Shown here piece by piece: positions 17,833-36,609 of a stretch of 64,000 nt of DNA. The notes under the pieces were generated by a model. It was not told the DNA's origin and made no database searches. It was given only the letters and a program-made list of their open reading frames with translations. Positions within the stretch are counted from its first letter, which is position 1, and the number at the start of each line of letters is the position of its first letter. The stretch covers positions 17,489 through 81,488 of the forward strand of contig JAZORU010000017.1 in the NCBI GenBank assembly GCA_045656765.1, in the 5' to 3' direction. The DNA is from Eubacteriales bacterium (GTDB lineage: Bacteria; Bacillota; Clostridia; Oscillospirales; CAG-272). The position numbers and the translations under genes were made by a program.

Positions 17833-18615
17833 TTATTCCATTTCTTTGCGAAGCGCGGCAAGTATCTTTTTTTCCTCTCTTGATATTTTGACCTGAGAGA
17901 GCGACAGTACCTCTGCCGTTTTTTGCTGAGACATGTCGCGAAAGTACCTGCATACTACGATCTGTCTCCACAGTGGCGGGAGCTTCGATATAGCTTCCGA
18001 GAGAGCTATTTTATCAAACTCGCGCTCGCAGGCATCCGTGTCGCATAGCCTGCTTTCCACGCTTATCTTTTCATCGTCAAAAACGGGCTCTCCGAGCATA
18101 GTGACAGGGCTTACCGCTTCAAGTGCGTCGGATGCGTCGGCAGGTGTTATTCCGAGCATTTCGGCAAGCTCAGCTATACCGGGTTCAGTACCCCTCTCGG
18201 ATATTATTTTTTCTCTCGTTCGAAGAAGCTCTGCTCCGAGCCGTTTTTGCTCACGGCCTACCTTTATGAGTCCGTCATCCCGTAAAAATCTTCGTATCTC
18301 TCCCATAATAAGAGGTACTGCGTAGGTTGAAAAGGCACAGCCGCGCTCAGCGTCAAACGAACGCACGGCACGTATCATACCGATGCTTCCTATCTGAAAA
18401 AGGTCGTCGAAATCAACCCCTCGCCCGAGAAAGCGCGTTGCTATTTTTCGCACGAGCCCTGCGTTTTGCTCGCAGAGCAGCGACAGTGCTCTATCGTCTC
18501 CCGACTGTGCCCGTACTACGAGCGAAATATTCTCCGAATAGTCACATTTTTCATGCTTTTGTGTATAGTGCTCATTTTCTGACTCACAGTTTGGTGCTTG
18601 CTTTAAAACATTCAT
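17833..18615 (-). CDS. sigF: Sporulation sigma factor SigF
   Basis: DLFQIGSIG, FSTYAVPLIMGEIRRFLRDDGLIKV, SQVKISREEKKIL; third gene of spoIIA. Confidence 0.9.
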   Translation of the reverse strand: MNVLKQAPNCESENEHYTQKHEKCDYSENISLVVRAQSGDDRALSLLCEQNAGLVRKIATRFLGRGVDFDDLFQIGSIGMIRAVRSFDAERGCAFSTYAVPLIMGEIRRFLRDDGLIKVGREQKRLGAELLRTREKIISERGTEPGIAELAEMLGITPADASDALEAVSPVTMLGEPVFDDEKISVESRLCDTDACEREFDKIALSEAISKLPPLWRQIVVCRYFRDMSQQKTAEVLSLSQVKISREEKKILAALRKEME

Positions 18616-18630
18616 TTTAAACTTTTTGAG

Positions 18631-19077
18631 CTAAGCACGGCTTCTCAGCTTTTTCGTCATGCTTACTCTCGTTCCCTTTCCCTTTTGAGAGAACACTTTT
18701 ACATCTCCCATAAAGCTTTCCATAACAGAAAAGCCCATACCGCTTCGCTCGCCCGTTGTATCCGTGGTAAAAAGAGGTGAGCGAGCCATTTCGACGTCCT
18801 CGATGCCGCACCCTCTGTCGCGCACGTCTATCCGCAGAGAACGGTCTGAGTATATGGCAGCTGTTATGTAAATTATCCCGCCGAGGTTTTTGTATGCGTG
18901 AACGATACAGTTTGTAACCGCCTCGCTCACCGAGCATTTTATATCTGCAAGTTCTTCAATTGTAGGGTCTGCCTGTGTGCAAAAGCTGCCGACAACGGCA
19001 CGGGCTACCCCTTCGTTTACAGATATTGCGGGCAGGGTGAGCTTCATTATATTAGTTTGTTCCTTCTTTGCTTTCAT
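18631..19077 (-). CDS. spoIIAB: Anti-sigma F factor
   Basis: NEGVAR, SEAVTNCIVHAY, DRGCGI, ERSGMGFSVME. Confidence 0.95.
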   Translation of the reverse strand: MKAKKEQTNIMKLTLPAISVNEGVARAVVGSFCTQADPTIEELADIKCSVSEAVTNCIVHAYKNLGGIIYITAAIYSDRSLRIDVRDRGCGIEDVEMARSPLFTTDTTGERSGMGFSVMESFMGDVKVFSQKGKGTRVSMTKKLRSRA

Positions 19078-23406: not shown

Positions 23407-23567
23407 AGATAAATCCCAAAAAGGCAAAAACGCGCAGGAAGAGTGCGGTTTTTGCCTTTTTCTGCGTGAGCACTTGCTTTTTTAGAAATAGTATGCTATA
23501 ATACATTGATTTGTTTTATAACAAACAAAAAATTTCTTTTAGAAGAATATTTCGGAGGATCTATATT

Positions 23568-24839
23568 TTGGATACGGACAGTTGGAGTCAGATTATTATA
23601 CTCGTGATTCTGATAATGTTTTCGGCATTTTTCTCGGCTACCGAGACGGCTTTTACCTCGCTTAACAAAACCCGCCTTAAGATGATGGCGGAGGAAGGAA
23701 ACAAGCGTGCGTCTCTGGCATTTAGCTTGACGGAGCAGTACGATAAGCTCTTGACAACGGTGCTTATAGGTAACAATATCGTCAATATTGCTTCGACTGC
23801 AATTGCAACGGTCTTGTTTATCGGGCTTCTCGAAAACCAAGCGACAGGCTCAACGGTCTCAACCGTCGTGATGACTGTGGTCGTTCTTATTTTCGGTGAG
23901 ATAACACCGAAAAGCATAGCGAAGGAAAAGCCGGAGGCGTTTGCGATGTTCGCAGCTCCTTTTATAAAGTTTTTGTGCTATATTTTTGTTGTTTTCATTG
24001 GATTCTTTTCTCTTTGGAAAAAGATGCTCAAAGCAGTATTTAAGCTTGAAGCAAACGATACCATCACCGGCGAGGAGCTTATCAACATAGTTGAAGAAGC
24101 AGAGGACAGCGGCGGTATCGACGAGGAGGAAAGCGACCTTATACGTTCAGCTATTTCCTTTTCCGAGCTTATAGCAGAGGATATCCTTACCCCCCGCGTT
24201 GACGTTGTTGCAATATCCAAGGACGAGGAGGAGAGCAGAATAGCCGAGATATTCGACGAGTCGAAATTCTCGCGTCTGCCCGTCTACGAGGAAGACATAG
24301 ACAACATCGTCGGATTTTTGCATATCCGTGATTTCAGCAGCTCCAAGTTCTCGGAGGACGAGAAATTTAATATCGACGAGCTGATAAAGGATACCGTTTT
24401 CGTTGCAAAGAGTATGCCTGTAAACGACCTGCTGAAGCTTTTGCAGCAGAAAAAGACGCATATGGCGGTGGTTACCGACGAGTACGGCGGAACTGCAGGT
24501 ATCGTAACGCTTGAGGATATTCTTGAAGAGCTTGTCGGTGAGATATGGGATGAGGCTGACGAGGTCGTAGAGGATTTCGTTGAGCTTGAGGACGGCAGAG
24601 TAAAGGTGCTTTGCTCGGCACAGCTTTCAAAAATGTTCGACCGCTTCGATATAGAAAATGACGACGACAGCGAGTCGGTCTCTGTCGGCGGCTGGGTTAT
24701 AGAGCAGCTTTGCAAGATTCCCGAGGAGGGCGACAGCTTCACATATAACAATATGGAAGTGACCGTTACCAAGGTAGAGAACAGACGTATCATTGAGATA
24801 TGCGTTCTTCTGCACGAGGTAGAGGAAGAAAAAGAATAA
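23568..24839 (+). CDS. CNNM/HlyC-CorC family CBS-domain membrane protein
   Basis: SAFFSATETAF, LIGNNIVNI, FGEITPKS, FSRLPVY, VTDEYGGTAG; TTG start after GGAGG. Confidence 0.92.
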   Translation: MDTDSWSQIIILVILIMFSAFFSATETAFTSLNKTRLKMMAEEGNKRASLAFSLTEQYDKLLTTVLIGNNIVNIASTAIATVLFIGLLENQATGSTVSTVVMTVVVLIFGEITPKSIAKEKPEAFAMFAAPFIKFLCYIFVVFIGFFSLWKKMLKAVFKLEANDTITGEELINIVEEAEDSGGIDEEESDLIRSAISFSELIAEDILTPRVDVVAISKDEEESRIAEIFDESKFSRLPVYEEDIDNIVGFLHIRDFSSSKFSEDEKFNIDELIKDTVFVAKSMPVNDLLKLLQQKKTHMAVVTDEYGGTAGIVTLEDILEELVGEIWDEADEVVEDFVELEDGRVKVLCSAQLSKMFDRFDIENDDDSESVSVGGWVIEQLCKIPEEGDSFTYNNMEVTVTKVENRRIIEICVLLHEVEEEKE

Positions 24840-24842
24840 TTA

Positions 24843-24938
24843 CAAAAAACTGCCGAGACGGTAAAACGTCCCGGCAGTTTTTGCGTATAAACAAACAAGG
24901 TTTTCGCCTTCTTGGTGAAAATCTTTTTTTATTTTTTT
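24843..24938 (+). terminator. Two tandem intrinsic terminators upstream of the phage-like operon
   Basis: AAAAACTGCCG...CGGCAGTTTTT (24843-24883) and AAGGTTTTCGCC-ttctt-GGTGAAAATCTT plus a long T tract (24897-24938). Confidence 0.75.
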
Positions 24939-25003
24939 AAAGTGTACGTTTTTCGGCGGTTTTGTTCGGTAGAATACAAATGCAGGCGAGACAGGAGGCA
25001 GAA

Positions 25004-25333
25004 ATGAAGAAAGAAAAGAAAGACAAAAAAGAGAACGTCAGCACAGACGAGGCAAGGAAGCTCGAAGGCATCTGGAGTCGCGCGATGGCGCTGAGGGGAC
25101 TTAAAAAGGTGCTCGGCGTGTCGCTTGAGGCGGCGAAGATCCCAAAGCTTGACGAGAACGGGGAAGTGGTTGAGATAAAATACAACCCGAGCGCCGCCAA
25201 CGCCGCGACAAAGGCTATCGAGACGGCGAACAAGATGCTCGGCTACAACCTTCCCGACGAGGACGAGGAGACGGATGAGGACGACGGCGAGATAACCGTC
25301 ATCTTTGAGGGAATGGAGGAATATTCGCTTTGA
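25004..25333 (+). CDS. Putative terminase small subunit (short, no evident HTH)
   Basis: Directly upstream of and overlapping terL; SAANAATKAIETANKMLG helix and acidic tail ending ITVIFEG resemble TerS C-terminal regions; AGGAGG RBS. Confidence 0.6.
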   Translation: MKKEKKDKKENVSTDEARKLEGIWSRAMALRGLKKVLGVSLEAAKIPKLDENGEVVEIKYNPSAANAATKAIETANKMLGYNLPDEDEETDEDDGEITVIFEGMEEYSL

Positions 25334-26670
25334 CACTTACGCTTTCTCCGCCTCACGAAAAGCAAAAGGAGTTTTTACTCGCTCGCACACGCTACGTGGC
25401 TTACGGCGGTGCGAGAGGCGGCGGCAAGAGCCATGCCGTCCGTCTGAAAGCTACGCTGCTCTGCCTCAGATACAGTGGGATCCGCGTGCTGATAGTGAGG
25501 CGCTCCTACCCCGAGCTATACGAAAACCATATAAAGATAATGACGAGGGAGCTTGCGGGCGTTGCTTCCTACAGGGACTCGGACAAGAGCCTGACCTTTA
25601 AAAACCAAAGCAGGATAAAGTTCGGCTACTGTTCATCTGACTCTGACCTGCTTCAGTATCAGGGAGTCGAGTACGACGTTATCTTTATGGATGAGGCAAC
25701 ACATTTTACCGAATATCAGTTTTCGGTAATAGGTGCCTGTATGCGAGGGGCAAACGATTTTCCGAAGCGCTTTTATCTCACCTGCAACCCCGGTGGAGTT
25801 GGGCACGCTTGGGTAAAGAGGCTGTTCGTTGACCGTGAATATAAAGAGGGAGAGTGTGCTGACAACTATACCTTTATAAAAAGCACGGTGTACGACAACA
25901 AGCCCTTAATTTCCTCCGACACCGAATACGTAAGCACGCTCAAAAACCTTCCGACCGAGCTCAGACGCGCGTGGCTCGACGGAGACTGGGACGTGTTTGC
26001 GGGACAATATTTTACCGAATTTTCAAGAGATATTCACGTATATGAAAGCTACTCTATTCCGCAGTGGTGGAAAAGATACAGAGCGTTTGACTACGGCCTT
26101 GATATGCTCGCCTGCTTATGGGCTGCAGTTGACGACTCGGGGGATATCTGGATATACCGTGAATACTGCGAGCCGAACCTTATCGTAAGCGAGGCGGCAA
26201 AGGTCATGCTTGAGCTTTCCCGAGATGAGAAAATAGTGACGACCGTAGCACCGCCCGATATGTACAATCGCCAGAAGGACACGGGTAAGAGCATGGCTGA
26301 GTGCTTCGAGGATGCGGGAGTTAAGCTCACTCGCGCAGACAACTCTCGAATACAGGGCTGGATGAATCTAAAGGAGTGGCTAAAGCCCAAAGCTGCGCCC
26401 GACGGCAAGAAGACGGCGAGGCTTCATATCTCAAGCGACTGCCGAGAGCTTATCAGATGCTTGCCCCAGCTTATGCACGACGAGCATTCAAGCATGGACG
26501 TATCAACCGAGCCGCACGAGATAACGCATATATGCGACGCTCTGAGATATATGTGTATGTACAGAAGCTCGGCTTCAAAGCAAAGGCCTTCTTTGAGCTT
26601 CGAGCAAAAATACCGCGAGCGCGCCATACGGGCGTGCCGCGGCGGTGTTGGGGGAGGATTTTTTACCTGA
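25330..26670 (+). CDS. Terminase large subunit
   Basis: Adenine-binding PHEKQ, Walker A YGGARGGGKS, Walker B VIFMDEA, motif III TCNPGG, nuclease AFDYG and HICDALRY. Confidence 0.93.
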   Translation: MTLTLSPPHEKQKEFLLARTRYVAYGGARGGGKSHAVRLKATLLCLRYSGIRVLIVRRSYPELYENHIKIMTRELAGVASYRDSDKSLTFKNQSRIKFGYCSSDSDLLQYQGVEYDVIFMDEATHFTEYQFSVIGACMRGANDFPKRFYLTCNPGGVGHAWVKRLFVDREYKEGECADNYTFIKSTVYDNKPLISSDTEYVSTLKNLPTELRRAWLDGDWDVFAGQYFTEFSRDIHVYESYSIPQWWKRYRAFDYGLDMLACLWAAVDDSGDIWIYREYCEPNLIVSEAAKVMLELSRDEKIVTTVAPPDMYNRQKDTGKSMAECFEDAGVKLTRADNSRIQGWMNLKEWLKPKAAPDGKKTARLHISSDCRELIRCLPQLMHDEHSSMDVSTEPHEITHICDALRYMCMYRSSASKQRPSLSFEQKYRERAIRACRGGVGGGFFT

Positions 26671-26695
26671 TACTACAAAAAATTTGGAGGAAAAC

Positions 26696-26884
26696 ATGAA
26701 AACGATTTTTAAAGTAAAGCGGAAATGCTCGGTGCCGGGGTGTGCTTCTGTTGACTGCTATGCGGCAAGCAGAGGCTCGGGGGGAGCAGTGAGCCTTTGC
26801 CGTGAATGTGCAAAAGAGCTGTATCTTGCACATTACGGCGAAAAAGCGCCGCACACAAGGAAAAAGGAGGACAAAGGTGACTGA
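26696..26884 (+). CDS. Small Cys-rich (putative Zn-binding) protein
   Basis: GGAGG RBS; CSVPGC...LCRECA. Confidence 0.6.
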   Translation: MKTIFKVKRKCSVPGCASVDCYAASRGSGGAVSLCRECAKELYLAHYGEKAPHTRKKEDKGD

Positions 26885-27095
26885 GATAATTTTCGTGCTT
26901 TTGTATCTTTTGGCGGTGCTGTGGCTTGAGCGATGTCACCGTGCGGAGAGACGGGAGCTATACGACCGCATAAGCTTTGATAAGTCCGAGGACTACGTCA
27001 AGCTTCGCGAAAAGAAAAAGCGTCAGATGCCCGAGCCCCCGTATATGAAGACCGCGAAAAAGTGGCGCAGTACAAAGGAGAGTGAGCACAGATGA
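26877..27095 (+). CDS. Small single-TM protein preceding the portal
   Basis: GGAGG then GTG; IIFVLLYLLAVLWL followed by ERRELYDRI; overlaps both neighbours. Confidence 0.6.
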   Translation: MTEIIFVLLYLLAVLWLERCHRAERRELYDRISFDKSEDYVKLREKKKRQMPEPPYMKTAKKWRSTKESEHR

Positions 27096-29059
27096 GCAGC
27101 TTAAAGGATATTTTTTTGAAAAAAGATGCGGCAGAGAAAAAGACCTCAGACAAGGACGTTTCCCCTCGCTTTTATAATGAGGATGGGGGAGAGGTATACG
27201 AGGAAGAGGTAGTTGCGTTTATAGCGGACGAGCTTGAACGCCGCCGCGAAGAGAGGCGCGGATGTGAGCTTCAGTGGAGACTCAACTCAAACTTCCTTCT
27301 CGGACATCAGAACTGCGATATAAACCCATATAGAAGCGAAGTGGAGGACAGAGAGGTACAGTACGAGTATATGCAGCGCGCTTGCTATAACCGCATAGCA
27401 CCTATCATTGATACGAGACTTGCCAACCTTGAAACAATGCGCTTCGATATGACGGTCACACCCGCAACCAACGAAATAGACGACTATGAGAAGGCGAACA
27501 TATCAACAAAGATTCTTTCCTATCTTAAAAGCTCTACCGACTTTGACAGCGTAAGACGCTCGCTTGTTGCATGGAGCGAGATGTGCGGCTCTGCTTTTGT
27601 GATGTCCTGGTGGGACAGAGACGCCGGTGCTGTGATAGGTACTGCGGAGCAGACGGATGCAGAGGGGAACAAGACCGAGATAGAGCTTCACGAGGGAGAC
27701 GTCAAATACGGCATCCTTACACCCTACGAGGTATATCCCGACAGCATAAATATACAGAGCATCAAGGAGCAGAGCTCTGTCATAGTCGAGCAGGTAATGA
27801 AAAGCGAGCGCGTATACGAGCTGTACGGTATAAAGCTTGAAGGCGGGACAGTCGAGACCTACGCACTTTCTCATACAGAGGGAGGCGGCGGTTTCGGGTA
27901 CCCTAATACCGATATGAGTCTCTCGCCCTGTATGGCGGAGGATTCGGTTAAGGTTATCTCGTACTTTGAGAGGGCTTCAAAGAAGCACCCGCACGGCAGA
28001 CTTATAATATGTGCCGCGGATAAGGTGCTTTTCTACGGAGCCTTGCCTTATGACGATATCCCGATAGCCCAGCTGAAAACAAAGGACGTACCCGGGCGGT
28101 TCTTTGGCAGAAGCGTGATTGAGGAGCTAATTCCGCTCCAGAGAGCTTATAACGGATGCAAAAACAAGATCCACGACTACATAAGGACTCTTGCTTCAAA
28201 TCCGCTTCTCGTTCCCGAGGGAAGCATCGACGATATTGAGTCTCTCGTTGAATGTGGCACAGCACCAGGCTCTATTATCGAGTACGATGCCGACAGAGGA
28301 AAGCCATCCCCGCTTATTTTCCAAAGCATTTCAAACGAGGTGCGCGAGGAGTGCGACGATATCGTGCGCGAGATGGAATACGTGGCGGGCGTTTCTCAGC
28401 TTATGGTTGCAGGCTCAAGACCGCAGGGTGTTACGAGCGGAACTGCCATTGAAAGACTGCAAAAAATTGATAACACACGTCTTTCCCTCGTGGCAGACCG
28501 CATAAGAAGCACCGTCAGAGACGTGGCTCTTACCTGGCTTAAAATATACAAGCGCCATGCAAAGACCTGCCGTCTCGTCGCTATTTCGGGACAGAACGAG
28601 ATGTCAAGCGTCTTTACCTGGACGGGTGACGATATCAATTCCTTTGATATCGTGTTTGATACCGAAAACGAGCTGAAAAACAGCGAGGAAAAGCAACGCG
28701 AAAATTTCCTTTACGCAATGTCTATGGGACTGTTCTCGGACGAGGACGGAAAGCTTCCGAGGGACTTCAAGGAAAGAGCGATAGAGATGCTAAGACTCGG
28801 TGCGTACGGTGCTCTTATGGGCGAGAATGAGCTTCAGCTTACCAATGCGAGAAGAGAGAACAATATGCTTGCGCAGGGAAGCTTGCCCGAGCTTGACCGA
28901 TATGACGACGATGCGCTTCATATATCCGAGCACAAGCGATTTGCCCTGCAGATGCGATTTAAGCTTCTGCGTAAAAAAGAGCCTGTTCTTGCGGCGGCGT
29001 TTGACGAGCATATTGCCGCGCACGCTACGAGACTTAAGCTAAAAGAAAAAGGAGAATAA
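27092..29059 (+). CDS. Portal protein (large, podovirus-like)
   Basis: 655 aa after the terminase; YNRIAPIID, FFGRSVIEELIPLQRAYN, GVTSGTAI. Confidence 0.82.
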   Translation: MSSLKDIFLKKDAAEKKTSDKDVSPRFYNEDGGEVYEEEVVAFIADELERRREERRGCELQWRLNSNFLLGHQNCDINPYRSEVEDREVQYEYMQRACYNRIAPIIDTRLANLETMRFDMTVTPATNEIDDYEKANISTKILSYLKSSTDFDSVRRSLVAWSEMCGSAFVMSWWDRDAGAVIGTAEQTDAEGNKTEIELHEGDVKYGILTPYEVYPDSINIQSIKEQSSVIVEQVMKSERVYELYGIKLEGGTVETYALSHTEGGGGFGYPNTDMSLSPCMAEDSVKVISYFERASKKHPHGRLIICAADKVLFYGALPYDDIPIAQLKTKDVPGRFFGRSVIEELIPLQRAYNGCKNKIHDYIRTLASNPLLVPEGSIDDIESLVECGTAPGSIIEYDADRGKPSPLIFQSISNEVREECDDIVREMEYVAGVSQLMVAGSRPQGVTSGTAIERLQKIDNTRLSLVADRIRSTVRDVALTWLKIYKRHAKTCRLVAISGQNEMSSVFTWTGDDINSFDIVFDTENELKNSEEKQRENFLYAMSMGLFSDEDGKLPRDFKERAIEMLRLGAYGALMGENELQLTNARRENNMLAQGSLPELDRYDDDALHISEHKRFALQMRFKLLRKKEPVLAAAFDEHIAAHATRLKLKEKGE

Positions 29060-29060
29060 C

Positions 29061-29711
29061 ATGAAAAAAACAGAACAAAAAGAAGAGATCCTCTCGGCAC
29101 CGGCACCCATCGTGGAGGGTGTCGAGGAGGTGCTCGATCCTGAGCTTTCCGAAGATAGTCTTCCCACGAAGGAAGAGCTTGCTTCGATGACGGAAGCTGA
29201 GAGAGCAGAGCTTTACAGGCAGATAGTTGATACGGTAGACCGAACGGTCGAGGACAGGGTAAATTCTCTTGCCGAGGAATACAAGAGAGGCATATCTGAT
29301 CTTCAGGATGCAAGCGTAAGAGGTGCTTTTGCTTCTTCCGAGAAGTTTTCGGGATTTGGCGAGAGCATTGCGGCAATCGATACGCTCATAGAAAAGGTGC
29401 CCGTTCTCAAAACCCTTCCCGCAGACGAAAAGTACACCGTAGCCTACCTAATAAACGAGGGCATAAAGGCAAGGGAGGTAAGATCGGGTATGAGTGCGGA
29501 GAGCCTGGTTTCTCTTATGAACTCGCGCCCCGACGCCATGCGTCTTTACGAGGCACAGAAAACCGAGGAGCTTTCCCGCAACTACAAGTCAACCCCTGCA
29601 TTTACGGCATCGGGCGGAAGCTCTGTTATGCCTGCAAACATTAAAAGCACGCCTAAGAATTTGGATGAGGCGAGCAGAGAAGCATATTCAAGCTTCGGTA
29701 TAAAAATATAA
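29061..29711 (+). CDS. Putative capsid scaffolding protein
   Basis: Acidic, helical, between portal and capsid; C-terminal PKNLDEA. Confidence 0.6.
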   Translation: MKKTEQKEEILSAPAPIVEGVEEVLDPELSEDSLPTKEELASMTEAERAELYRQIVDTVDRTVEDRVNSLAEEYKRGISDLQDASVRGAFASSEKFSGFGESIAAIDTLIEKVPVLKTLPADEKYTVAYLINEGIKAREVRSGMSAESLVSLMNSRPDAMRLYEAQKTEELSRNYKSTPAFTASGGSSVMPANIKSTPKNLDEASREAYSSFGIKI

Positions 29712-29738
29712 AAAAACAAAAACAAAGGAGAAAAAATT

Positions 29739-30968
29739 ATGTCACAGTTACTTACACAGATCGAAGGTATTTTGAAGGATAAATACCAGCCGGCAATAGC
29801 CAACCAGATAAACATCGAGCCTTCACCTTTCCTTGAAAAGATAAAGAAGGTTCCGCTTACCAACAACACAATCAAGTTCGCTGCTCCCTTCGGTATAAAC
29901 GGAGGCTTCGGCTTTGGTGCCGAGGGAAGCGCTACCCCCCGCTCAGGCGCTCAGAAGTACGTATCATTCTCTCTTGATGCGATTGATATGTACGTTGACG
30001 TAAAGATTTCAAACAAGACGGTTGAGCTTGCTTCCTCAAACGCATCGGCTATGATAAACGCTCTTGATACCGAAATTAAGGGAAGCTACGCATCTGCGAA
30101 GTGGAATCTCGGAAGAGCACTCTTCGGCGACGGCTCGGGCAAGCTTGCAAAGGTTACAAGCCTTCCTATGAAGGACGAAACGGCAAATTGCATTTATGTT
30201 GACGATACAAGCAAGCTCATTGAAGGTCTTATCGTTGACGTATATACCTACCGTACAGCAGACGGCATGACGCCCGTACTTGAGGAATGCAACAAGGGAC
30301 TTAGAATAATTTACGTTGACCACGATGGAAAGACCGTTTGCTTTGATAAAGCAGATTTCGACTGGAGTCAAAAGAATGCCGACGGTGTTTCATACGGATT
30401 TTTGACCGTTCAGAACAGCTACAACAGAGAGCTTTGCGGTCTCGGAGCTATTTTTGACAATACCGTTGACGAGCTTTACGGACTTAAGAAGAGCAAAAAC
30501 GAATGGATAAAGCCTATCGTTTACACTTGTGATAACAACGTTACCGATATTGATATCTATGCAGGCGTTAAAAAGGCTAAGGACTACAAGGGTGCAGATA
30601 TAGACCTTATTATGATGGGAGACGATGCGTTTAAGACCTATCAGGAATATATGCGTGCAAACAATATCGTAGTAACCGAAAAGCACAGATTCGTAGGTGG
30701 GGCGGTCGGCTACAAGGTGCTTGCCGGCAGCCAGGAGGTAATTATAGTAAACGAGCGTTTCGTTCCCAAAAACGAGGCGTGGGGTGTTGACACCAAGACC
30801 TTTATGCTTCAGTGTACACCTTGGAACTTTATGTCAAAGGACGGAGGAATTTTCGTTCCTATGGCTGATACCTCTATTTACAGAGCATTGCTTGCTTCTT
30901 ACGGTAACCTTATTTGCACTAATCCCGGCGGTTGCGTGAGATTTATAGCTTGCGCTTCTAATTCTTAA
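29739..30968 (+). CDS. Major capsid protein (HK97-like fold inferred)
   Basis: 409 aa, strong RBS; AEGSATP, RALFGDGSG, GLGAI, YGNLICTNPG; followed by a hairpin. Confidence 0.82.
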   Translation: MSQLLTQIEGILKDKYQPAIANQINIEPSPFLEKIKKVPLTNNTIKFAAPFGINGGFGFGAEGSATPRSGAQKYVSFSLDAIDMYVDVKISNKTVELASSNASAMINALDTEIKGSYASAKWNLGRALFGDGSGKLAKVTSLPMKDETANCIYVDDTSKLIEGLIVDVYTYRTADGMTPVLEECNKGLRIIYVDHDGKTVCFDKADFDWSQKNADGVSYGFLTVQNSYNRELCGLGAIFDNTVDELYGLKKSKNEWIKPIVYTCDNNVTDIDIYAGVKKAKDYKGADIDLIMMGDDAFKTYQEYMRANNIVVTEKHRFVGGAVGYKVLAGSQEVIIVNERFVPKNEAWGVDTKTFMLQCTPWNFMSKDGGIFVPMADTSIYRALLASYGNLICTNPGGCVRFIACASNS

Positions 30969-30983
30969 TTTAGTTGTTTGATA

Positions 30984-31007
30984 TGCGTCGGGGAAATCCC
31001 CGACGCA
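30984..31007 (+). terminator. GC-rich hairpin after the capsid gene (attenuator or mRNA stabiliser)
   Basis: TGCGTCGGGG-aaat-CCCCGACGCA with only a weak U tract. Confidence 0.65.
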
Positions 31008-31030
31008 CTTCAAAAGAAAGGAGTGAGTGT

Positions 31031-31366
31031 ATGGACACAAAAAAGCTGTATAACGACGTTTACGCAAACACAAAGATAGGAGAAGCGCCTTTCAGACGCG
31101 CTTTCAACGGAGCGGTCAGATATATAGCCTCACGATACGGATTAAACTACGTGACCGACGATGCAGAGTCGCTTTATATAAAAAATACAGGGGATGAAAG
31201 CTCGCTCTACGACGTTTACTTTGCTGCAGTGAAGGAATATATAGAAAGGACGGGTGAGCCTGCCACGGAAAAATTCGGCAGCTTTACCTCGCTCGTTGAT
31301 ATAGCGTTCCGTACCGTATGGAAGGAAAAAAATAAGGGCAGAAGGATAAGGGGGTGCAGTTTTTGA
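31031..31366 (+). CDS. Hypothetical virion (head-completion) protein
   Basis: AAGGAG RBS, ATG 31031; position after the capsid gene. Confidence 0.55.
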   Translation: MDTKKLYNDVYANTKIGEAPFRRAFNGAVRYIASRYGLNYVTDDAESLYIKNTGDESSLYDVYFAAVKEYIERTGEPATEKFGSFTSLVDIAFRTVWKEKNKGRRIRGCSF

Positions 31367-31965
31367 TACTGAGATCAAACGTAAAATCAAGCGAGCTTAT
31401 AAATAAAATAAAGGATACGCTCGAGGTTTTCACACCCCCGGGCGACAACGTTATATACGATATTCTCAACCGTTTTATAGAAGGTCTTTACTCGGGTGTC
31501 ATAAACGATATCCGAGAGGCAACGCTCGAAAAAAATGAAGATGGTGTCTACAGCCTCTCATATTACGAGAACGGAGAAACGGCAGACGTGCGGGTATGCG
31601 ACGTAGTAAAGGTCGTGTGCGGAGAGCACGAGTACGAGAGAGTAGGCGAAGAGTATCCCGCGCGGCTTTGCAGTGAGGACGAGCATTTTTATAAAATGAC
31701 GGATGACGGGGTGCTAAGCCTTTATTCAACTAAGCCCGAGGATGAGAGAATACTTGTATATTTCAGAGCAGTTCCCCCGCTTCATACGGCAGACGACGAT
31801 AGAGAAATAGAGCTACCAAGTGAGTTTATGGATCTTGCAGAGGCCAAGCTCTATTCTGAGATCTACCGCGTGCTTGGCGAGGATGCGCTGTGTGCCAACT
31901 GGACAGAGCAATACAATATGCTGATGACTCGTTTCGGGGTATGGCTGGAGGTGCATGGGCTTTGA
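31363..31965 (+). CDS. Putative head-tail adaptor protein
   Basis: TTG overlapping the upstream TGA; VYFRAVPP...IELPSEFMDL...YN pattern typical of adaptors. Confidence 0.55.
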   Translation: MILRSNVKSSELINKIKDTLEVFTPPGDNVIYDILNRFIEGLYSGVINDIREATLEKNEDGVYSLSYYENGETADVRVCDVVKVVCGEHEYERVGEEYPARLCSEDEHFYKMTDDGVLSLYSTKPEDERILVYFRAVPPLHTADDDREIELPSEFMDLAEAKLYSEIYRVLGEDALCANWTEQYNMLMTRFGVWLEVHGL

Positions 31966-33368
31966 GAGGGCAAAGCATAAAGACACAGCACTCAAGCGTG
32001 CCAAGCAAAAGAAAAGAATACGTATATTACAGACACGGGCTTGGCACTTTGAGAAAGGACAAGGAATACGATACCGACGGAATGTGTGAAATCAGCCAGA
32101 TTGATACAAGTGATTATCCGTTTGTTAAATCAGCAGGCACGGCTAAGTATTTGTGGTTGAAATATACCGGTAAGGTGCTTGATCTTATAATGTGCGACGG
32201 AATCATCTATGCGGCTGTACATAGCGAGGACGCTATATATATGTACGTGTGTGACCCCCAGAAAGTCACCATTGTGCAAACGTATATATGCAATACAAAA
32301 GACAACGATCCGTCGCATTATGCACTTGTCAGATATAACGAATTTCCTTCTAATATGAATCCGTTCGTAGGTGGATATCTAAAAAAAATTCTTTTGCTTC
32401 CGCTTTTTTTTTCTTACGACATACAAGACAACAAAGCGGAAAAATTACCAAGCAATGCTGCCCCTATCTCTACGATGGGTACGATGTTTGTGTCAAGATT
32501 GTTTTCGGCGTGCAAAGGCAATATCTTTGCATCGGAATTCAATAAAGTAAATTCATACAGCTTTGATACCGCCGATAACTCAAGCTCGGCAAATGCCTGG
32601 ATGAGTACCACGCAGTCAAACGTTAAGGCGGACGGAGATATCACGGCACTTGCCGTTTACGACGGGCACGTCGTGCTCTTTAAGCGGGATTATATGATGC
32701 AGGTATATAATAACGAAAACCCTTTCAGGCTTGTTGAGATCGGATCTTACGGATGTATATCAAAGAAAGCGGTCTGTGAGTTTGACGGAAAGCTTGCTTT
32801 CATAAGTCCTCAAGGACTTATGCTCTATTCGGGAGGCTACCCGTATTTTATAGGAGAGGAGCTTAACGTAAAGGATTGGAGTGGGTCAATGCTTTGCGCG
32901 GGAGGTAAATATCTGTACGTTTACGTAGCTTCCGAAAAATGCGTTTACGTTTATGACGCTGAGCACAACACGTGGGGGCACAGAGACTCAAAACCCTTGA
33001 GCTTTATGTGCGCTGACCATAACGGAGCATATTACGTGCGTAATAACGATATTATCCGATTTGGCGGAAACGCACCTAAGGAGTTCAGCCTTACCACAGA
33101 CAGAAACTCTCTTGGCTATAACGGAAGAAAACGTATAAGCTCTATCGGTTTTACTGCCATTCTCGGAGATGGAGCAGAGCTTTACGTAGATCTTATAGAC
33201 GACGCGGGAACCGTTTATGAGACGGTAAGCGTAATTGGTGCAGGAGAGCATATGGTATCAGAAAAAATAAAAGGAGTGAGCTTGACCTACGCTCAGCTTA
33301 CCTTCAGAGGTAAGGGAGAGGTAAAGATAGGCGAGTATCGGATAAAATTCAGAAAGGAGGACGAATAA
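31962..33368 (+). CDS. Putative tail nozzle / packaged-DNA stabilisation protein (beta-propeller)
   Basis: GDITALAVYDGHVVLFK, YGCISKKAVCEFDGKLAFIS..GLMLYSGG, VYVYDAEHNTW. Confidence 0.65.
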   Translation: MRGQSIKTQHSSVPSKRKEYVYYRHGLGTLRKDKEYDTDGMCEISQIDTSDYPFVKSAGTAKYLWLKYTGKVLDLIMCDGIIYAAVHSEDAIYMYVCDPQKVTIVQTYICNTKDNDPSHYALVRYNEFPSNMNPFVGGYLKKILLLPLFFSYDIQDNKAEKLPSNAAPISTMGTMFVSRLFSACKGNIFASEFNKVNSYSFDTADNSSSANAWMSTTQSNVKADGDITALAVYDGHVVLFKRDYMMQVYNNENPFRLVEIGSYGCISKKAVCEFDGKLAFISPQGLMLYSGGYPYFIGEELNVKDWSGSMLCAGGKYLYVYVASEKCVYVYDAEHNTWGHRDSKPLSFMCADHNGAYYVRNNDIIRFGGNAPKEFSLTTDRNSLGYNGRKRISSIGFTAILGDGAELYVDLIDDAGTVYETVSVIGAGEHMVSEKIKGVSLTYAQLTFRGKGEVKIGEYRIKFRKEDE

Positions 33369-33369
33369 T

Positions 33370-34098
33370 ATGACTTTTGAAGAGATGGAAAGCGAAATAA
33401 TCAGGCTTAAGGGGATGCTTGACGAGCGTATATCCGAGGACGTAAAATACCGACGTATGATCGAAGACCTTGTGAACAACCTTACGTTCGACAATATGCC
33501 CGCCATAAAGAAAACCCTTAAGGGAAGCATTGAGAAAATATCGCGGATATCCGGCGATATAGACGGCATTTATCAGGGGATAAGCTCAGTAGAGCAAAGA
33601 GTAAACGAGCAGGGTGCCGAGCTTTCTCTTGTAGTATCCGAAACCGAGGGAGAGAAAACGATAAATACCGCAAGCATAATTGCGGCGATAAACGATTCTG
33701 CTTCAAACATAAAGCTGTCTGCTGACAAAATAGAGTTTGAAGGTGCTGATATCAGCATAGATACGAGAATGCTGAAGGTTAACGCAGAGGGGCGAGTTGA
33801 GTTCTCTTCCTCCGTTATTGCAGACAATTATTACGGTATGAGCGGATATTTTAACAGCAGGGTCGATCTTGGAAGCGCAAACGGAAGCACCGGATATGCG
33901 TATATGCACTCAAACGAGTGCGACGGAATCGAAATTCACGGTGCAGGCGGTGTCATTTTGAGCACTGAAGCTGACAATAAGGGTGTTTCGGGTGACGTCG
34001 ACGTATTTGCTGACAGTATTCGCCTCAACGGTAACAGAGTGCTTACCGATTCGGATGCCGATATAGCATATCTGCGTATGGTGCTTGGCAATTATTAA
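33370..34098 (+). CDS. Short tail fibre/needle-like protein
   Basis: N-terminal coiled coil, SIIAAINDSASNIKLSADKIEFEG, beta-rich C-terminus. Confidence 0.55.
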   Translation: MTFEEMESEIIRLKGMLDERISEDVKYRRMIEDLVNNLTFDNMPAIKKTLKGSIEKISRISGDIDGIYQGISSVEQRVNEQGAELSLVVSETEGEKTINTASIIAAINDSASNIKLSADKIEFEGADISIDTRMLKVNAEGRVEFSSSVIADNYYGMSGYFNSRVDLGSANGSTGYAYMHSNECDGIEIHGAGGVILSTEADNKGVSGDVDVFADSIRLNGNRVLTDSDADIAYLRMVLGNY

Positions 34099-34111
34099 AA
34101 GGAGAATTAAG

Positions 34112-35041
34112 ATGATAACAGTAAAAGACGTAGCGGTTGCGGTTTCCGAGATAGTATTTTCAAACGAAGGAAGCTATGCAAGCGTAAACAAAGACGACAA
34201 CGGAGCGCTGTCAATAGGCAAGCTTCAATGGCATGGCGAGAGGGGCAGGGAGCTGCTCTATAAAATATGCGATGGAGACACGGAGCTTCAAAATATGCTC
34301 GGCGGGCTTTGGAGCGAGGTTTTGACGTCAGGCTCGTTTAAAGCTCGCACGCTTGATAAAGATGAAGCACAAGCGGTAAAAAGCGTTCTTTCAAGTGAAA
34401 GATCAAAGCAGATACAGGATGCTCTCGCAATAGAGGATATCTGCCTTGATATTCAAAGAGGCGTTGGTTACGGACTTTCTGACTGCGGAGCTCTTATGTA
34501 TTTTGCCGACGGAGCTAACCAGTACGGAAGGTACTCTAAGCTATGGAAGGATGCGTGCGAGATCGCGCTGTCTCGCGGCGGCACTCTTGAAGAGCTTCAC
34601 AATGCGATACTTTCTCTGACCGATGCAAAAAGAGAAAGAAGAGTCAGAACATACGAAAAAATAAAGAAAACGGAGATGGCAGGGTGCTGTCTCGGAGAGG
34701 AGAAGGAAATGAACGTAACGTACAAAACGGAGACGGTCACGCATAAGGTAGTGCGCGGAGATACACTTTCGAAAATAGCTAAAAAGTACGGAAGCGATAT
34801 CGACTCAATACTTGAAGCAAACCGTGAAAAATACAAAGCAATTACCCGTAATTATATCGTTGCCGGCTGGATTCTTGCCATACCTGTAAAAAAAGAGGTA
34901 AGCGAGTATGAGCTTGCTCTTGAAGCGTTAAAAAAAGCGGGTGTTCTCGGCGGCGTTATTATCGAGGAGAGTATCGGTGAGCCTACGGTAATTGTGCTTT
35001 ACAGAGTGCTCTGTCTTCTCGGATGGGAGTCGGGGAAATGA
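34112..35041 (+). CDS. Lysozyme-like peptidoglycan hydrolase with a LysM domain (endolysin or virion lysin)
   Basis: NEGSYASVN.DDNGALSIGKLQW; LysM HKVVRGDTLSKIAKKYG...IVAGWILAIP. Confidence 0.75.
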   Translation: MITVKDVAVAVSEIVFSNEGSYASVNKDDNGALSIGKLQWHGERGRELLYKICDGDTELQNMLGGLWSEVLTSGSFKARTLDKDEAQAVKSVLSSERSKQIQDALAIEDICLDIQRGVGYGLSDCGALMYFADGANQYGRYSKLWKDACEIALSRGGTLEELHNAILSLTDAKRERRVRTYEKIKKTEMAGCCLGEEKEMNVTYKTETVTHKVVRGDTLSKIAKKYGSDIDSILEANREKYKAITRNYIVAGWILAIPVKKEVSEYELALEALKKAGVLGGVIIEESIGEPTVIVLYRVLCLLGWESGK

Positions 35042-35319
35042 ACGATGCGGCAATAGGCATAATATGCACGGTGCTCGGCGCTCTTTTCGGCTTTTCCTCA
35101 TACCGAAGATACGTAAAGCGCGACGGAGCAGAGCAGGGGCGCGAGCGCTCGGACATTGAGTATATAAAGCGCCGTACTGACGATATTCTGCTCGAGCAAA
35201 AAAACACGAATATGACTCTTTCCTCTCACGCTGAGAGAATAACTCGGGTAGAGGAAAGCGTTAAGCAAGCCCACAAGCGAATAGACGGCATGTCGGGCTC
35301 AACACACGATTTTCAGTAA
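35038..35319 (+). CDS. XhlA-like single-TM coiled-coil lysis-associated protein
   Basis: N-terminal TM; DIEYIKRRTDDI...ERITRVEESVKQAHKRID. Confidence 0.65.
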   Translation: MNDAAIGIICTVLGALFGFSSYRRYVKRDGAEQGRERSDIEYIKRRTDDILLEQKNTNMTLSSHAERITRVEESVKQAHKRIDGMSGSTHDFQ

Positions 35320-35331
35320 AGGAGAGAAAAT

Positions 35332-35658
35332 ATGCAAATAACAACTTTAATTTCTATTATCGCTGCGGTAGTCTGTATATCACTTTTTCTATGGGTATAC
35401 AGAGGAGGACTTAAGCGTTACGCAAAGCAGCTGCTTATGTGCCTTGTTGAGAGAGCGGAGCAGACCTTCGGCGCGGGAACGGGAAGACTTAAATATTCGG
35501 CGGTTGCATCAAAGCTGTACGAGATAATGCCCCCTGTTTTTAAATTTATCTTTTCCGAGAAGGCTATAGCGTATATGATAGAAGAGGCTGTGTCCGAAAT
35601 GAAGGAATGCCTTGGTATTGGGGATTCGGACAAGTGCGGTGAGGAGTGCTCGGTATGA
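35332..35658 (+). CDS. Holin (LL-H-like)
   Basis: N-terminal TM then LVERAEQTFGAGTGRLKYSAV...IEEAV. Confidence 0.65.
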   Translation: MQITTLISIIAAVVCISLFLWVYRGGLKRYAKQLLMCLVERAEQTFGAGTGRLKYSAVASKLYEIMPPVFKFIFSEKAIAYMIEEAVSEMKECLGIGDSDKCGEECSV

Positions 35659-36452
35659 AAAAGGATCCTTTAAGAGACTATATAGCCAAGCAGGCGATAG
35701 ACGCAGTAAACAAGCTTGTAGCAAAAAAGGATGACGAAACGTCAACGAACAATCAGACGAATAACACCTCGAACAAGGGCACTTCAAGCTCAAAGACCTC
35801 ATCTTCGGAAAAGATAAACCAGAGATACGAAAACACGCTTGCATCTGCAAGCTCCGGACAGCTTGACGTACAGAAAAAGATCGATTCGTTTTTAGGCGAT
35901 CTCACAGGCAAATACGACGCTTTTCTTGATAAGCTGACAGAGGCAAGCTACAAAGACACGGATTATTATGGAAGTATCGTTTCCGAGTACGAGGAGCTCG
36001 GTAAAAGAATGGCGTATGACGCATCTGCTTCGGCTGCTGCCTCAAACGGCGGTAATTTTGACACTCTCGGCGCTGCAAACGCTCACCGCCAGATGCTTTC
36101 CTATAAAAAAGCAGGAGAACAAGCGGCAAGAGACGCTTACAGCGAAGAGATAGACAGATATGCAAAGGGGCTTTTGAACTATGCGTCCGATATCTCGGAT
36201 GCGTATAAGCTTCTCTCGGACTCTGCGGGTAAAGCAGATGACTACAATATCTCGATGCTCGATGCCCTTGAAGGTTACAGAAGACTTCAGGACGAAAAGG
36301 AAGCGACCAAGCAAGAGACGATCATTAAGGAGCTTAGGGAAAAGCTTGATAAAGACAATAAATCAAGCCGCTATTTTACCTATGCTCAAATGCTTGCTAC
36401 GGTATATCCCGAATACAGAGAGGAAATACAAAAATTATTCCTTTCAAAATAA
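35655..36452 (+). CDS. Hypothetical helical protein, possible DNA ejection/pilot protein
   Basis: Ala/Ser-rich helical core ASASAAASNGGNFDTLGAANAHRQ; last gene of the operon, ATGA overlap. Confidence 0.5.
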   Translation: MKKDPLRDYIAKQAIDAVNKLVAKKDDETSTNNQTNNTSNKGTSSSKTSSSEKINQRYENTLASASSGQLDVQKKIDSFLGDLTGKYDAFLDKLTEASYKDTDYYGSIVSEYEELGKRMAYDASASAAASNGGNFDTLGAANAHRQMLSYKKAGEQAARDAYSEEIDRYAKGLLNYASDISDAYKLLSDSAGKADDYNISMLDALEGYRRLQDEKEATKQETIIKELREKLDKDNKSSRYFTYAQMLATVYPEYREEIQKLFLSK

Positions 36453-36545: not shown

Positions 36546-36609
36546 GAACACATCCCTTGATATAATGTTGGCGTAAAGAAGAGAACAACCGTTGTTTTGG
36601 GAGGTATAT

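Follow-up and report, generated by a model that had tools for sequence, protein, structure and literature searches.

Here we describe an 11.5-kb cluster of virus-derived genes (25004-36452) in a 64,000-nucleotide stretch of DNA from an Eubacteriales bacterium (Clostridia, CAG-272; GenBank assembly GCA_045656765.1, contig JAZORU010000017.1, positions 17,489 to 81,488 of the forward strand), hereafter referred to as the window. The cluster is opened by terS, which by profile homology codes for a small terminase subunit (TerS) of 109 amino acids and is followed directly by terL, the gene for the large subunit (TerL). This TerS has lost the N-terminal helix-turn-helix (HTH) domain, and in its family the HTH-less state goes together with compact, integrase-less clusters that are flanked by host genes and encode a phage-like particle. 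The window cluster, being compact, virus-derived and devoid of integration or replication genes, is much like the gene transfer agent (GTA) described recently for Faecalibacterium (FpGTA), and we consider it probable, although by a limited measure, that it functions as a GTA itself. A previous reading made from the sequence alone had proposed sequence-nonspecific headful packaging of host DNA; this is the best-supported mechanism, made plausible by analogy with FpGTA and with gp1 of the Rhodobacter capsulatus GTA (RcGTA).

Loss of the HTH domain from the small terminase

Judged from profile comparisons, the 109-residue protein is a true TerS of the Terminase_2 lineage (SPP1/SF6 G1P-like) which has kept the oligomerisation core and the C-terminal tail. 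This identification, already made in the sequence-only reading and confirmed here, is based on two steps: the TerS alignment A1 aligns with A3, an alignment of 26 HTH-bearing TerS relatives with 159 match columns (hhalign probability 99.7%, E 1.2e-26, 89 aligned columns, A3 columns 70-159 only), and A3 in turn reaches small terminases of solved structure. The A3 profile matches those of Pam5 (E 1.1e-07) and SF6 (3zqp/3zqq, E 8.9e-05), and the structure model of one HTH-bearing A3 member, P0034, has as its best Foldseek match 3zqq_C, a full-length SF6-type small terminase (probability 0.99, E 5.7e-03), and also matches the SF6 DNA-binding domain 4zc3/2cmp (probability 1.00, template modelling score 0.71 normalised by target). 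A core profile derived from the HTH-bearing relatives scores the window TerS at 82 bits.

Searches that started from the window protein and its close family would, taken by themselves, also fit an unrelated small acidic protein that lies by chance ahead of terL. The protein matches no Pfam family at E≤0.1 and hence falls below the curated cut-off of Terminase_2 (26.1 bits), its sole PHROG match is weak (E 0.055) and concerns a family without known function, and the best result of a PDB sequence search with the TerS family profile was a nucleoporin (E 0.11), which we judged to be a chance hit. Foldseek comparison of the monomer model with PDB and BFVD had no result at E≤0.001 (the weak BFVD rows include a few entries named 'terminase small subunit'), VIA-align over 48,161 chains found generic helical hairpins only (Z≤6.7), and the sequence clusters to which ten TerS relatives belong have 1-6 members each and no informative name or accession, one being a 'hypothetical protein'. 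However, given the alignment with HTH-bearing Terminase_2 proteins that reach solved small terminases, and the recurrence of the 4-nt overlap between terS and terL in relatives, such a coincidence appears extremely improbable and, as far as profile searches can tell, is effectively refuted. Moreover, 27 columns of A1 are invariant over 20 homologues with identities down to 47%, all of them located in a core of about 64 residues, which indicates that terS is not a chance ORF.

Homologues of the window TerS were found by a word-indexed search (19 at E≤1e-3 among 32 candidates) and by running a profile against 1.84 billion cluster representatives, which gave 54 matches at E≤1e-3, 21 at ≤1e-10 and 8 at ≤1e-30. 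Close matches are either short or carry long low-complexity N-terminal tails; distant matches comprise 140-183 residues and are aligned only from about residue 55-85 on. Terminase_2 (PF03592) was detected at E≤0.01 in 17 of the 38 matches that were scanned with Pfam, nine of them above the curated cut-off, and all 17 domain matches start at or close to the N-terminus. These relatives show the expected LTxKQxxF...AY..AGY region, and their Pfam scoring falls mostly on the N-terminal part that is absent from the window TerS. A local profile of the N-terminal HTH part of A3, run on 94 sequences, matched 26 of them; no match was reported for the window TerS or any row of its clade, and the profile was silent even on clade members with N-terminal extensions of 50-177 residues. 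The P0034 model (mean predicted local distance difference test, pLDDT, 89) shows helices at residues 7-19, 22-30 and 37-48 and a long linker helix (51-81), followed by helix, hairpin and helix as in the window TerS, whose AlphaFold2 monomer contains no HTH helices. The missing part amounts to about 69 profile columns and comprises the N-terminal HTH together with most of the linker helix. With Pfam, HTH profile, hhalign and structure models in agreement, the absence of the HTH that had been read from the sequence is confirmed, and the loss of the domain is firmly shown.

In a quick maximum-likelihood tree of 87 rows (of the 94 sequences, 7 were left out because they were too short or duplicated another over the aligned region), 51 HTH-less rows including the window form one clade with a Shimodaira-Hasegawa-like approximate likelihood ratio support of 98, nested among HTH-bearing rows, which points to a single ancestral loss of the domain. 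This HTH-less clade is spread over several genera of Clostridia. Outside it, ten further HTH-less rows sit beside HTH-bearing ones; P0060 is a truncated call of the HTH-bearing L055 gene, with part of which its core is identical, and the types represented by L075 and by L012/P0058 look like separate, genuine HTH-less TerS proteins encoded in compact clusters with host genes nearby.

The closest HTH-bearing relatives are found in prophage or virome contexts and look like phages. In locus L052, the gene order after terS is that of the window, with RusA, DNA methylase and Lar genes upstream, and in L055/L013 genes for a methylase, DUF1064, a phosphoadenosine phosphosulfate (PAPS)-reductase-like protein and Lin1244 lie downstream of the packaging genes on the opposite strand. 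In the phage collection, the record that matches best is MT836592.1, from a faecal virome; its TerL is 55.6% identical to that of the window, and its TerS of 168 residues belongs to Terminase_2 (E 2.4e-17). The HTH is present in the TerS of L052, L055 and MT836592.1; equally short relatives in autonomous phages, which would speak against the sequence-only reading, were not encountered, as the cultured or deposited phages of the collection include no HTH-less member and a tblastn search of 50,697 phage records with the window TerS gave no match at E≤1.

The Lys/Glu opening, the helices and the acidic tail described from the sequence are all recovered in A1, in the AlphaFold2 model and in charge counts (Table 1). 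The model comprises a helix (residues 12-43), a beta-hairpin (45-49/55-60) and a second helix (62-78), the remainder being disordered (mean pLDDT 64). We prefer the start codon that yields 109 residues over a TTG at 24962 because AGGAGG, a strong ribosome-binding site, precedes its ATG. The coupling of terS to terL takes the form of a 4-nt overlap between the TGA stop (25331-25333) and the TTG start of terL (25330), and ORF calls show an identical overlap in relatives L019-L023 and L025. At the C-terminus, an acidic run (residues 85-96) is followed by the motif TVIFEGMEEYSL, which is kept in HTH-bearing relatives as well; the net charge of the C-terminal segment is -13 in the window and -7 to -13 across the clade. 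The N-terminal tails of the clade measure 9-177 residues and vary in net charge from -5 to +11 (median +1), so the idea of a basic arm for nonspecific DNA binding finds no support as a general feature of the family. Some HTH-less TerS proteins (L031:9195-9998, P0022, P0019, P0074) carry tails of 100-180 residues composed of repeats rich in Lys, Ala, Gly, Pro and Glu. A similar repeat tail is found in an unrelated, FpGTA-like TerS family (L085, L090), possibly by convergence.

The cluster, its relatives and their chromosomal surroundings

Based on domain and PHROG matches, gene order and conservation, the window cluster is predicted to encode packaging, head, short-tail and lysis functions of a short-tailed (podovirus-like) phage (Table 1). 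It is preceded by the host genes Tex and CNNM and followed by genes for a 5'-nucleotidase, a diacylglycerol kinase (DAGK) and FolC, and domain and PHROG scans revealed no integrase, replication, repressor or lysogeny gene either within the cluster or right beside it. A structural cluster that lacks integrase, replication and lysogeny genes and lies amid host genes on both sides is the arrangement expected of a GTA, and in this respect the neighbourhood fits a GTA-like element. Its terL is the sole TerL gene in the 69%-complete genome, in which no match to PF03592 was detected. At the downstream border, an inverted repeat and a T-run were noticed by eye between the end of the cluster and the 5'-nucleotidase gene, which starts at 36592. 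Hydrophobic stretches in the translations of the 98-aa and 108-aa proteins suggest that these may act as holins, and the virion proteins of 492 and 242 residues diverge fast, with 47-52% identity to a congener.

Table 1. Coordinates of the window cluster, of the parts of terS and of the upstream border
Feature	Position	Strand	Basis or remark
Host CNNM/CorC gene	ORF 23511-24839		CNNM/CBS/CorC domains
Hairpin terminator, upstream cluster border	24845..24882	.	Terminator-like site, 16 pairs, after host CNNM/CorC gene
Shine-Dalgarno AGGAGG	24993..24998	+	5 nt 5' of terS ATG; sequence reading
terS (HTH-less small terminase)	25004..25333	+	109 aa, range includes stop; profile homology to C-terminal core of Terminase_2 small terminases
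terS residues 1-19, variable low-complexity Lys/Glu tail	25004..25060	+	Occupies place of relatives' HTH domain
terS residues 20-84, conserved helix/beta-hairpin/helix core	25061..25255	+	Presumed oligomerisation domain; holds all 27 invariant columns
terS residues 85-109, acidic linker and conserved C-terminal motif TVIFEGMEEYSL	25256..25330	+	Putative TerL-contact tail
terL, large terminase	25330..26670	+	Terminase_3 E 3.4e-14; phrog_979 E 9.4e-45
79-aa zinc-ribbon-like ORF (CxxC...CxxC) between terL and portal	26645..26884	+	tblastn conservation in relatives
ORF of about 70 aa with N-terminal hydrophobic stretch, between zinc-ribbon ORF and portal	about 26875-27095		41-51% identical in L008, L014, L015; start codon uncertain
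Portal (P22/SU10-like)	27092..29059	+	P22_portal E 3.1e-22; SU10_portal E 5.4e-08; phrog_156
Putative scaffold, 216 aa	29061..29711	+	Position and conservation in relatives; no Pfam/PHROG match
Major capsid protein, 409 aa	29739..30968	+	phrog_14242 major head protein E 5.8e-35
Two head-completion/adaptor-like genes, 130 and 203 aa	30974..31965	+	Weak SU10_adaptor E 0.0013 (203-aa ORF); both conserved in relatives
Virion or tail-tip proteins, 492 and 242 aa	31890..34098	+	phrog_511 'internal virion protein' E 7.2e-15
Putative lysis module: LysM protein (318 aa) and two small proteins (98, 108 aa)	34085..35658	+	LysM E 6.8e-10; endolysin PHROGs over LysM part
268-aa protein, last cluster gene	35646..36452	+	Conserved in L008, L009, L010, L025, L031

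Wherever the neighbourhood of an HTH-less TerS gene could be read, it consisted of an 11-12 kb short-tailed-phage-like cluster with head and packaging genes; in the window and its near relatives, lysis genes belong to it as well. Nearly all of these loci have housekeeping genes next to the cluster. Upstream, host genes directly adjoin terS in the window, L019/L008, L015, L022, L023/L009, L025, L031 and L075, and lie several kb upstream of terS in L012; on the downstream side, they come directly after the cluster in L008, L009 and the window. The adjoining genes encode melibiase and transporters in L022, a MurC-like ligase (upstream) and the S10 ribosomal operon (downstream) in L023/L009, a SpoIID-like protein and an HTH_26 protein in L025, RNase J, a ParA-like protein and RNase H in L031, and AsnA and a phosphoesterase in L075. 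Scans of the flanks of the window, L008, L009, L012, L015, L022, L025, L031 and L075 found no integrase or replication domain, and the host-embedded context of L008, L009, L022, L025, L031 and L075 is similar to that of the window. L010 is ambiguous, with an AAA_14/DUF4143 ATPase and an HTH_26 protein upstream. A 207-aa HTH_26 (Cro/C1-type) protein is encoded directly 5' of terS in L025 (8870-9493) and L010 (14003-14626), where it could regulate the cluster; it is absent in the window.

Within the genus, the cluster is found at the same locus in three lineages. In congener G048 the order is Tex, CNNM, two extra ORFs, cluster and 5'-nucleotidase, the extra ORFs (DUF218 and a 473-aa protein, between CNNM and terS) having no counterpart in the window. 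A scan of IMG/VR returned two loci only, both flagged viral, of which L015 has Tex and CNNM upstream of the cluster as in the window and L014 begins at terS. The ratio of nonsynonymous to synonymous substitution rates (dN/dS) is low for terL (0.11, dN 0.16; window versus G048), portal (0.06, dN 0.17; versus L014) and the major capsid protein (MCP) gene (0.13, dN 0.17; versus G048), and the dN values are about those of the flanking host genes Tex (dN/dS 0.055, dN 0.10) and CNNM (0.11, dN 0.17; both versus G048), with dS being saturated. None of the 13-14 cluster genes is disrupted in the window, nor in relatives whose proteins are as little as about 50-63% identical. Low dN/dS together with host-like dN fits a cluster that has long been resident in the genus under purifying selection and is no decaying remnant. 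Compared with a congener (L008), TerL, portal and MCP are 77-80% identical and the tail-side and lysis proteins 43-53%; only the 98-aa hydrophobic protein, at 83%, departs from this. Either the distal half (30974-36452) evolves much faster or it has been exchanged.

A TerL alignment scan of species-representative genomes recovered 556 relatives, the best 80 of which were kept (L019-L098). Among these 80 loci, 11 have an A1-type TerS (E≤1.8e-26). The 73 ORFs scanned as candidate TerS upstream of TerL include 26 of the P22 gp3 type, three of Terminase_2 and two of HTH_Tnp_1_2; the remaining ones are without a terminase-type family or are clearly other genes. Both gp3-type and Terminase_2 TerS proteins serve headful (pac) phages, which suggests that the TerL is of the headful type. 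One TerL clade (46-80% identical) pairs with at least four TerS families, namely gp3-type, Terminase_2, HTH_Tnp_1_2-type and two HTH-less families, so TerS has evidently been swapped often. Variant clusters at L043 and L026-L028 have the same MCP, adaptor and portal families in permuted order (terL, other genes, MCP, adaptor, portal) and lack a recognisable TerS. In L043, which lies between SecG and RNase R, a holin is among the genes after terL; in L026 and L028 an amidase gene lies ahead of terL.

The zinc-ribbon ORF was found by tblastn in L019-L021, L023, L026, L043, L052, L055 and L092. It was considered as a substitute for the HTH and rejected, because the HTH-bearing loci L052 and L055 have this ORF too. 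A Faecalibacterium-type cluster, L063, contains a 63-aa CxxC ORF, which is placed after the portal gene. Elsewhere in the window (17833-19077), a sigma-70-family factor is encoded beside an anti-sigma-type HATPase; this resembles the sporulation sigma-F/SpoIIAB pair and suggests a spore-forming Firmicute host. The stretch was found in 13 public sequencing runs from nine studies, as gut metagenome DNA contigs only (best share 0.23), with no RNA run listed.

Proposed packaging of host DNA and alternative explanations

We propose that a ring of TerS would recruit and activate TerL, with the C-terminal tail as the contact site. Without a TerS that reads pac, packaging would begin on any DNA at hand and proceed by headful, and particles would carry random host DNA, which is GTA behaviour. 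Ring formation, contact with TerL via the tail, nonspecific initiation and DNA transfer are all inferred.

Several observations weigh against this interpretation. A TerS match is patchily distributed in the family: 7 of the 201 genomes sampled have one, as do 5 of the 147 that are of high quality and two of the four genomes of the genus, the window's own included. In congener G132 (L100, G132:C190) the site is empty, with CNNM, DUF218 and 5'-nucleotidase adjacent and no cluster, and in different genera the cluster occupies different chromosomal loci. Empty and changing sites indicate that the cluster has moved or was lost repeatedly, which differs from the deep vertical inheritance of RcGTA. 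A headful of more than 11.5 kb could also let the element package itself whole; by the classical criterion, the headful of a GTA is shorter than the cluster that encodes it. The absence of a classical HTH does not prove nonspecificity; TerS proteins of the P22 gp3 type have no SF6-type HTH and yet belong to pac-specific phages. Finally, the structure model is only moderately confident. The N-terminal tail of the window TerS is mixed rather than clearly basic (net charge +1) and the protein is acidic overall (isoelectric point 4.7), so there is no evident surface for nonspecific DNA binding. It is because of the patchy distribution, the changing sites, a capsid capacity that may exceed 11.5 kb and the lack of such a surface that our confidence in a GTA does not exceed a moderate level.

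Some of these observations would also be accounted for by a mobile or helper-dependent, satellite-like element that packages its own 11-12 kb DNA specifically, recognised by the TerS core, the zinc-ribbon protein or a helper factor, and that borrows integration and replication. The presence of the same 11-12 kb unit at different sites across genera and the empty site of a congener imply that the unit has moved or was lost repeatedly, the stretch between terL and portal holds a small conserved zinc-ribbon ORF, two loci were flagged viral by IMG/VR pipelines, and a headful could hold the whole unit. We nevertheless regard such an element as unlikely. The loci whose flanks were scanned yielded no gene for an integrase or recombinase, for replication or for excision, although no search for flanking direct repeats was made; the zinc-ribbon ORF also accompanies HTH-bearing TerS genes; one of the two IMG/VR loci, L015, has the window's own host flank of Tex and CNNM; and the TerS is unmatched in the phage records. 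In addition, the head genes have diverged about as much as the adjacent host genes, which fits co-divergence within the genus.

The host-like divergence and the low dN/dS (0.06-0.13 for terL, portal and MCP) also bear on the possibility of a decaying prophage remnant, that is, a late operon left after deletion of the early region, with a TerS truncated by that deletion and no functional product. Such decay would explain why distribution is patchy and presence varies within the genus, why no regulatory genes lie beside the window cluster and why the 165 bp before terS contain no canonical sigma-70 promoter. It is, however, quite improbable in view of the intact genes of the window and its relatives, the 27 invariant columns of the TerS core and the recurrence of the same compact gene set at unrelated loci. 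The HTH-less state is common to a clade of 51 rows with a conserved start region of its own, and therefore it is no fresh truncation.

If the GTA interpretation is correct, a TerS without DNA-binding domain beside a headful-type TerL would be a sequence marker for GTAs in metagenomes, usable also in taxa in which random DNA packaging has been seen and no locus has been assigned. GTAs move arbitrary host genes between cells, and to our knowledge nearly all that were known before 2026 came from Alphaproteobacteria or a few scattered lineages. The window cluster would be a concrete candidate locus of a lineage other than that of Faecalibacterium. We further suggest, tentatively and with some doubt, that the loss of the HTH from a Terminase_2 TerS marks the origin of a second and independent family of podovirus-like GTAs, each encoded at a single locus, in gut and rumen Clostridia, with TerS, capsid and portal unlike those of FpGTA; as HTH-bearing sisters are still found in prophages, the transition from phage to GTA would then be readable in one protein family. 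For the idea that losing the DNA-recognition domain turns a phage terminase into a GTA terminase, this family offers unusually clean evolutionary evidence, because HTH-bearing and HTH-less forms can be aligned and the loss lies on one branch and is accompanied by the loss of phage early genes.

Comparison with known systems

With the small terminases of Terminase_2 (SF6/SPP1 G1P; PDB 3zqq, 2cmp/4zc3) the window TerS shares a homologous helix/hairpin/helix core, the C-terminal tail and the position of its gene directly before terL; it differs in that the N-terminal HTH is absent and the Pfam model does not score it. Capsid-forming phage-inducible chromosomal islands (cf-PICIs) are islands of 10-15 kb with their own terS, terL, portal and capsid genes. 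They possess genes for an integrase, regulation and replication and package their own DNA; in contrast, no integrase or module for replication and regulation is found in or beside the window cluster.

In RcGTA, gp1 (rcc01682), the first small terminase of a GTA, starts at the coiled-coil domain and has no DNA-binding domain, is essential for gene transfer, binds DNA weakly and without sequence preference and was likened to the T4-like 44RR TerS (Sherlock et al. 2019, PMC6854486). The same authors proposed this as the trait that defines GTA terminases (PMC6854486). The window TerS resembles gp1 in being encoded by the first gene of a structural cluster without replication or integration genes, in lacking the DNA-binding domain and in keeping the oligomerisation core, and an interaction with TerL is suggested by the conserved tail and the gene overlap. 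The two proteins differ in origin, gp1 being 44RR-like and the window TerS derived from Terminase_2, and no sequence relationship is expected. RcGTA is also long-tailed, unlike the podovirus-like window cluster, whose host is a Gram-positive anaerobe.

A closer parallel is provided by gut Clostridia. GTA-like packaging was reported to be common in gut Ruminococcaceae, Oscillospiraceae and Christensenellaceae (Nat Commun 2026, PMC12946183), the only paper among those listed in a literature search on gene transfer agents, Clostridia and terminase that concerns a GTA of gut Clostridia. There, a locus is assigned in Faecalibacterium only and none for other taxa: FpGTA I is a 10.5-kb operon for a TerS without DNA-binding domain, TerL, portal, scaffold, MCP and hypothetical proteins, tail(-fibre) and lysis genes are located in a second operon, and particles of roughly 40 nm contain 8.4-8.9 kb of DNA (PMC12946183). 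Candidate GTA clusters in mouse-gut taxa are reported in a 2026 preprint. The window cluster shares with FpGTA I an operon of 10-12 kb in a gut Clostridia chromosome with terS lacking the DNA-binding domain, terL, portal, scaffold, MCP and podovirus-like proteins; it differs in carrying putative lysis genes of its own, which in FpGTA are in the second operon together with the tail-fibre genes. Locus L063, from a metagenome-assembled genome of Faecalibacterium sp., fits the description of FpGTA I, and on the strength of the published description it is probably this locus. Its TerL is 56% identical to that of the window, its portal barely similar (E 0.002), and its MCP (309 versus 409 aa) gives no BLASTP match. 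Homology of the L063-type TerS (78 aa) with the window family was considered and rejected, as hhalign probabilities are 11% versus A3 (last 36 columns) and 0.6% versus A1; it represents a different family. With TerS, MCP and portal all different from those of L063, the window cluster is an analogue of FpGTA which has a related TerL and belongs to another family of elements.

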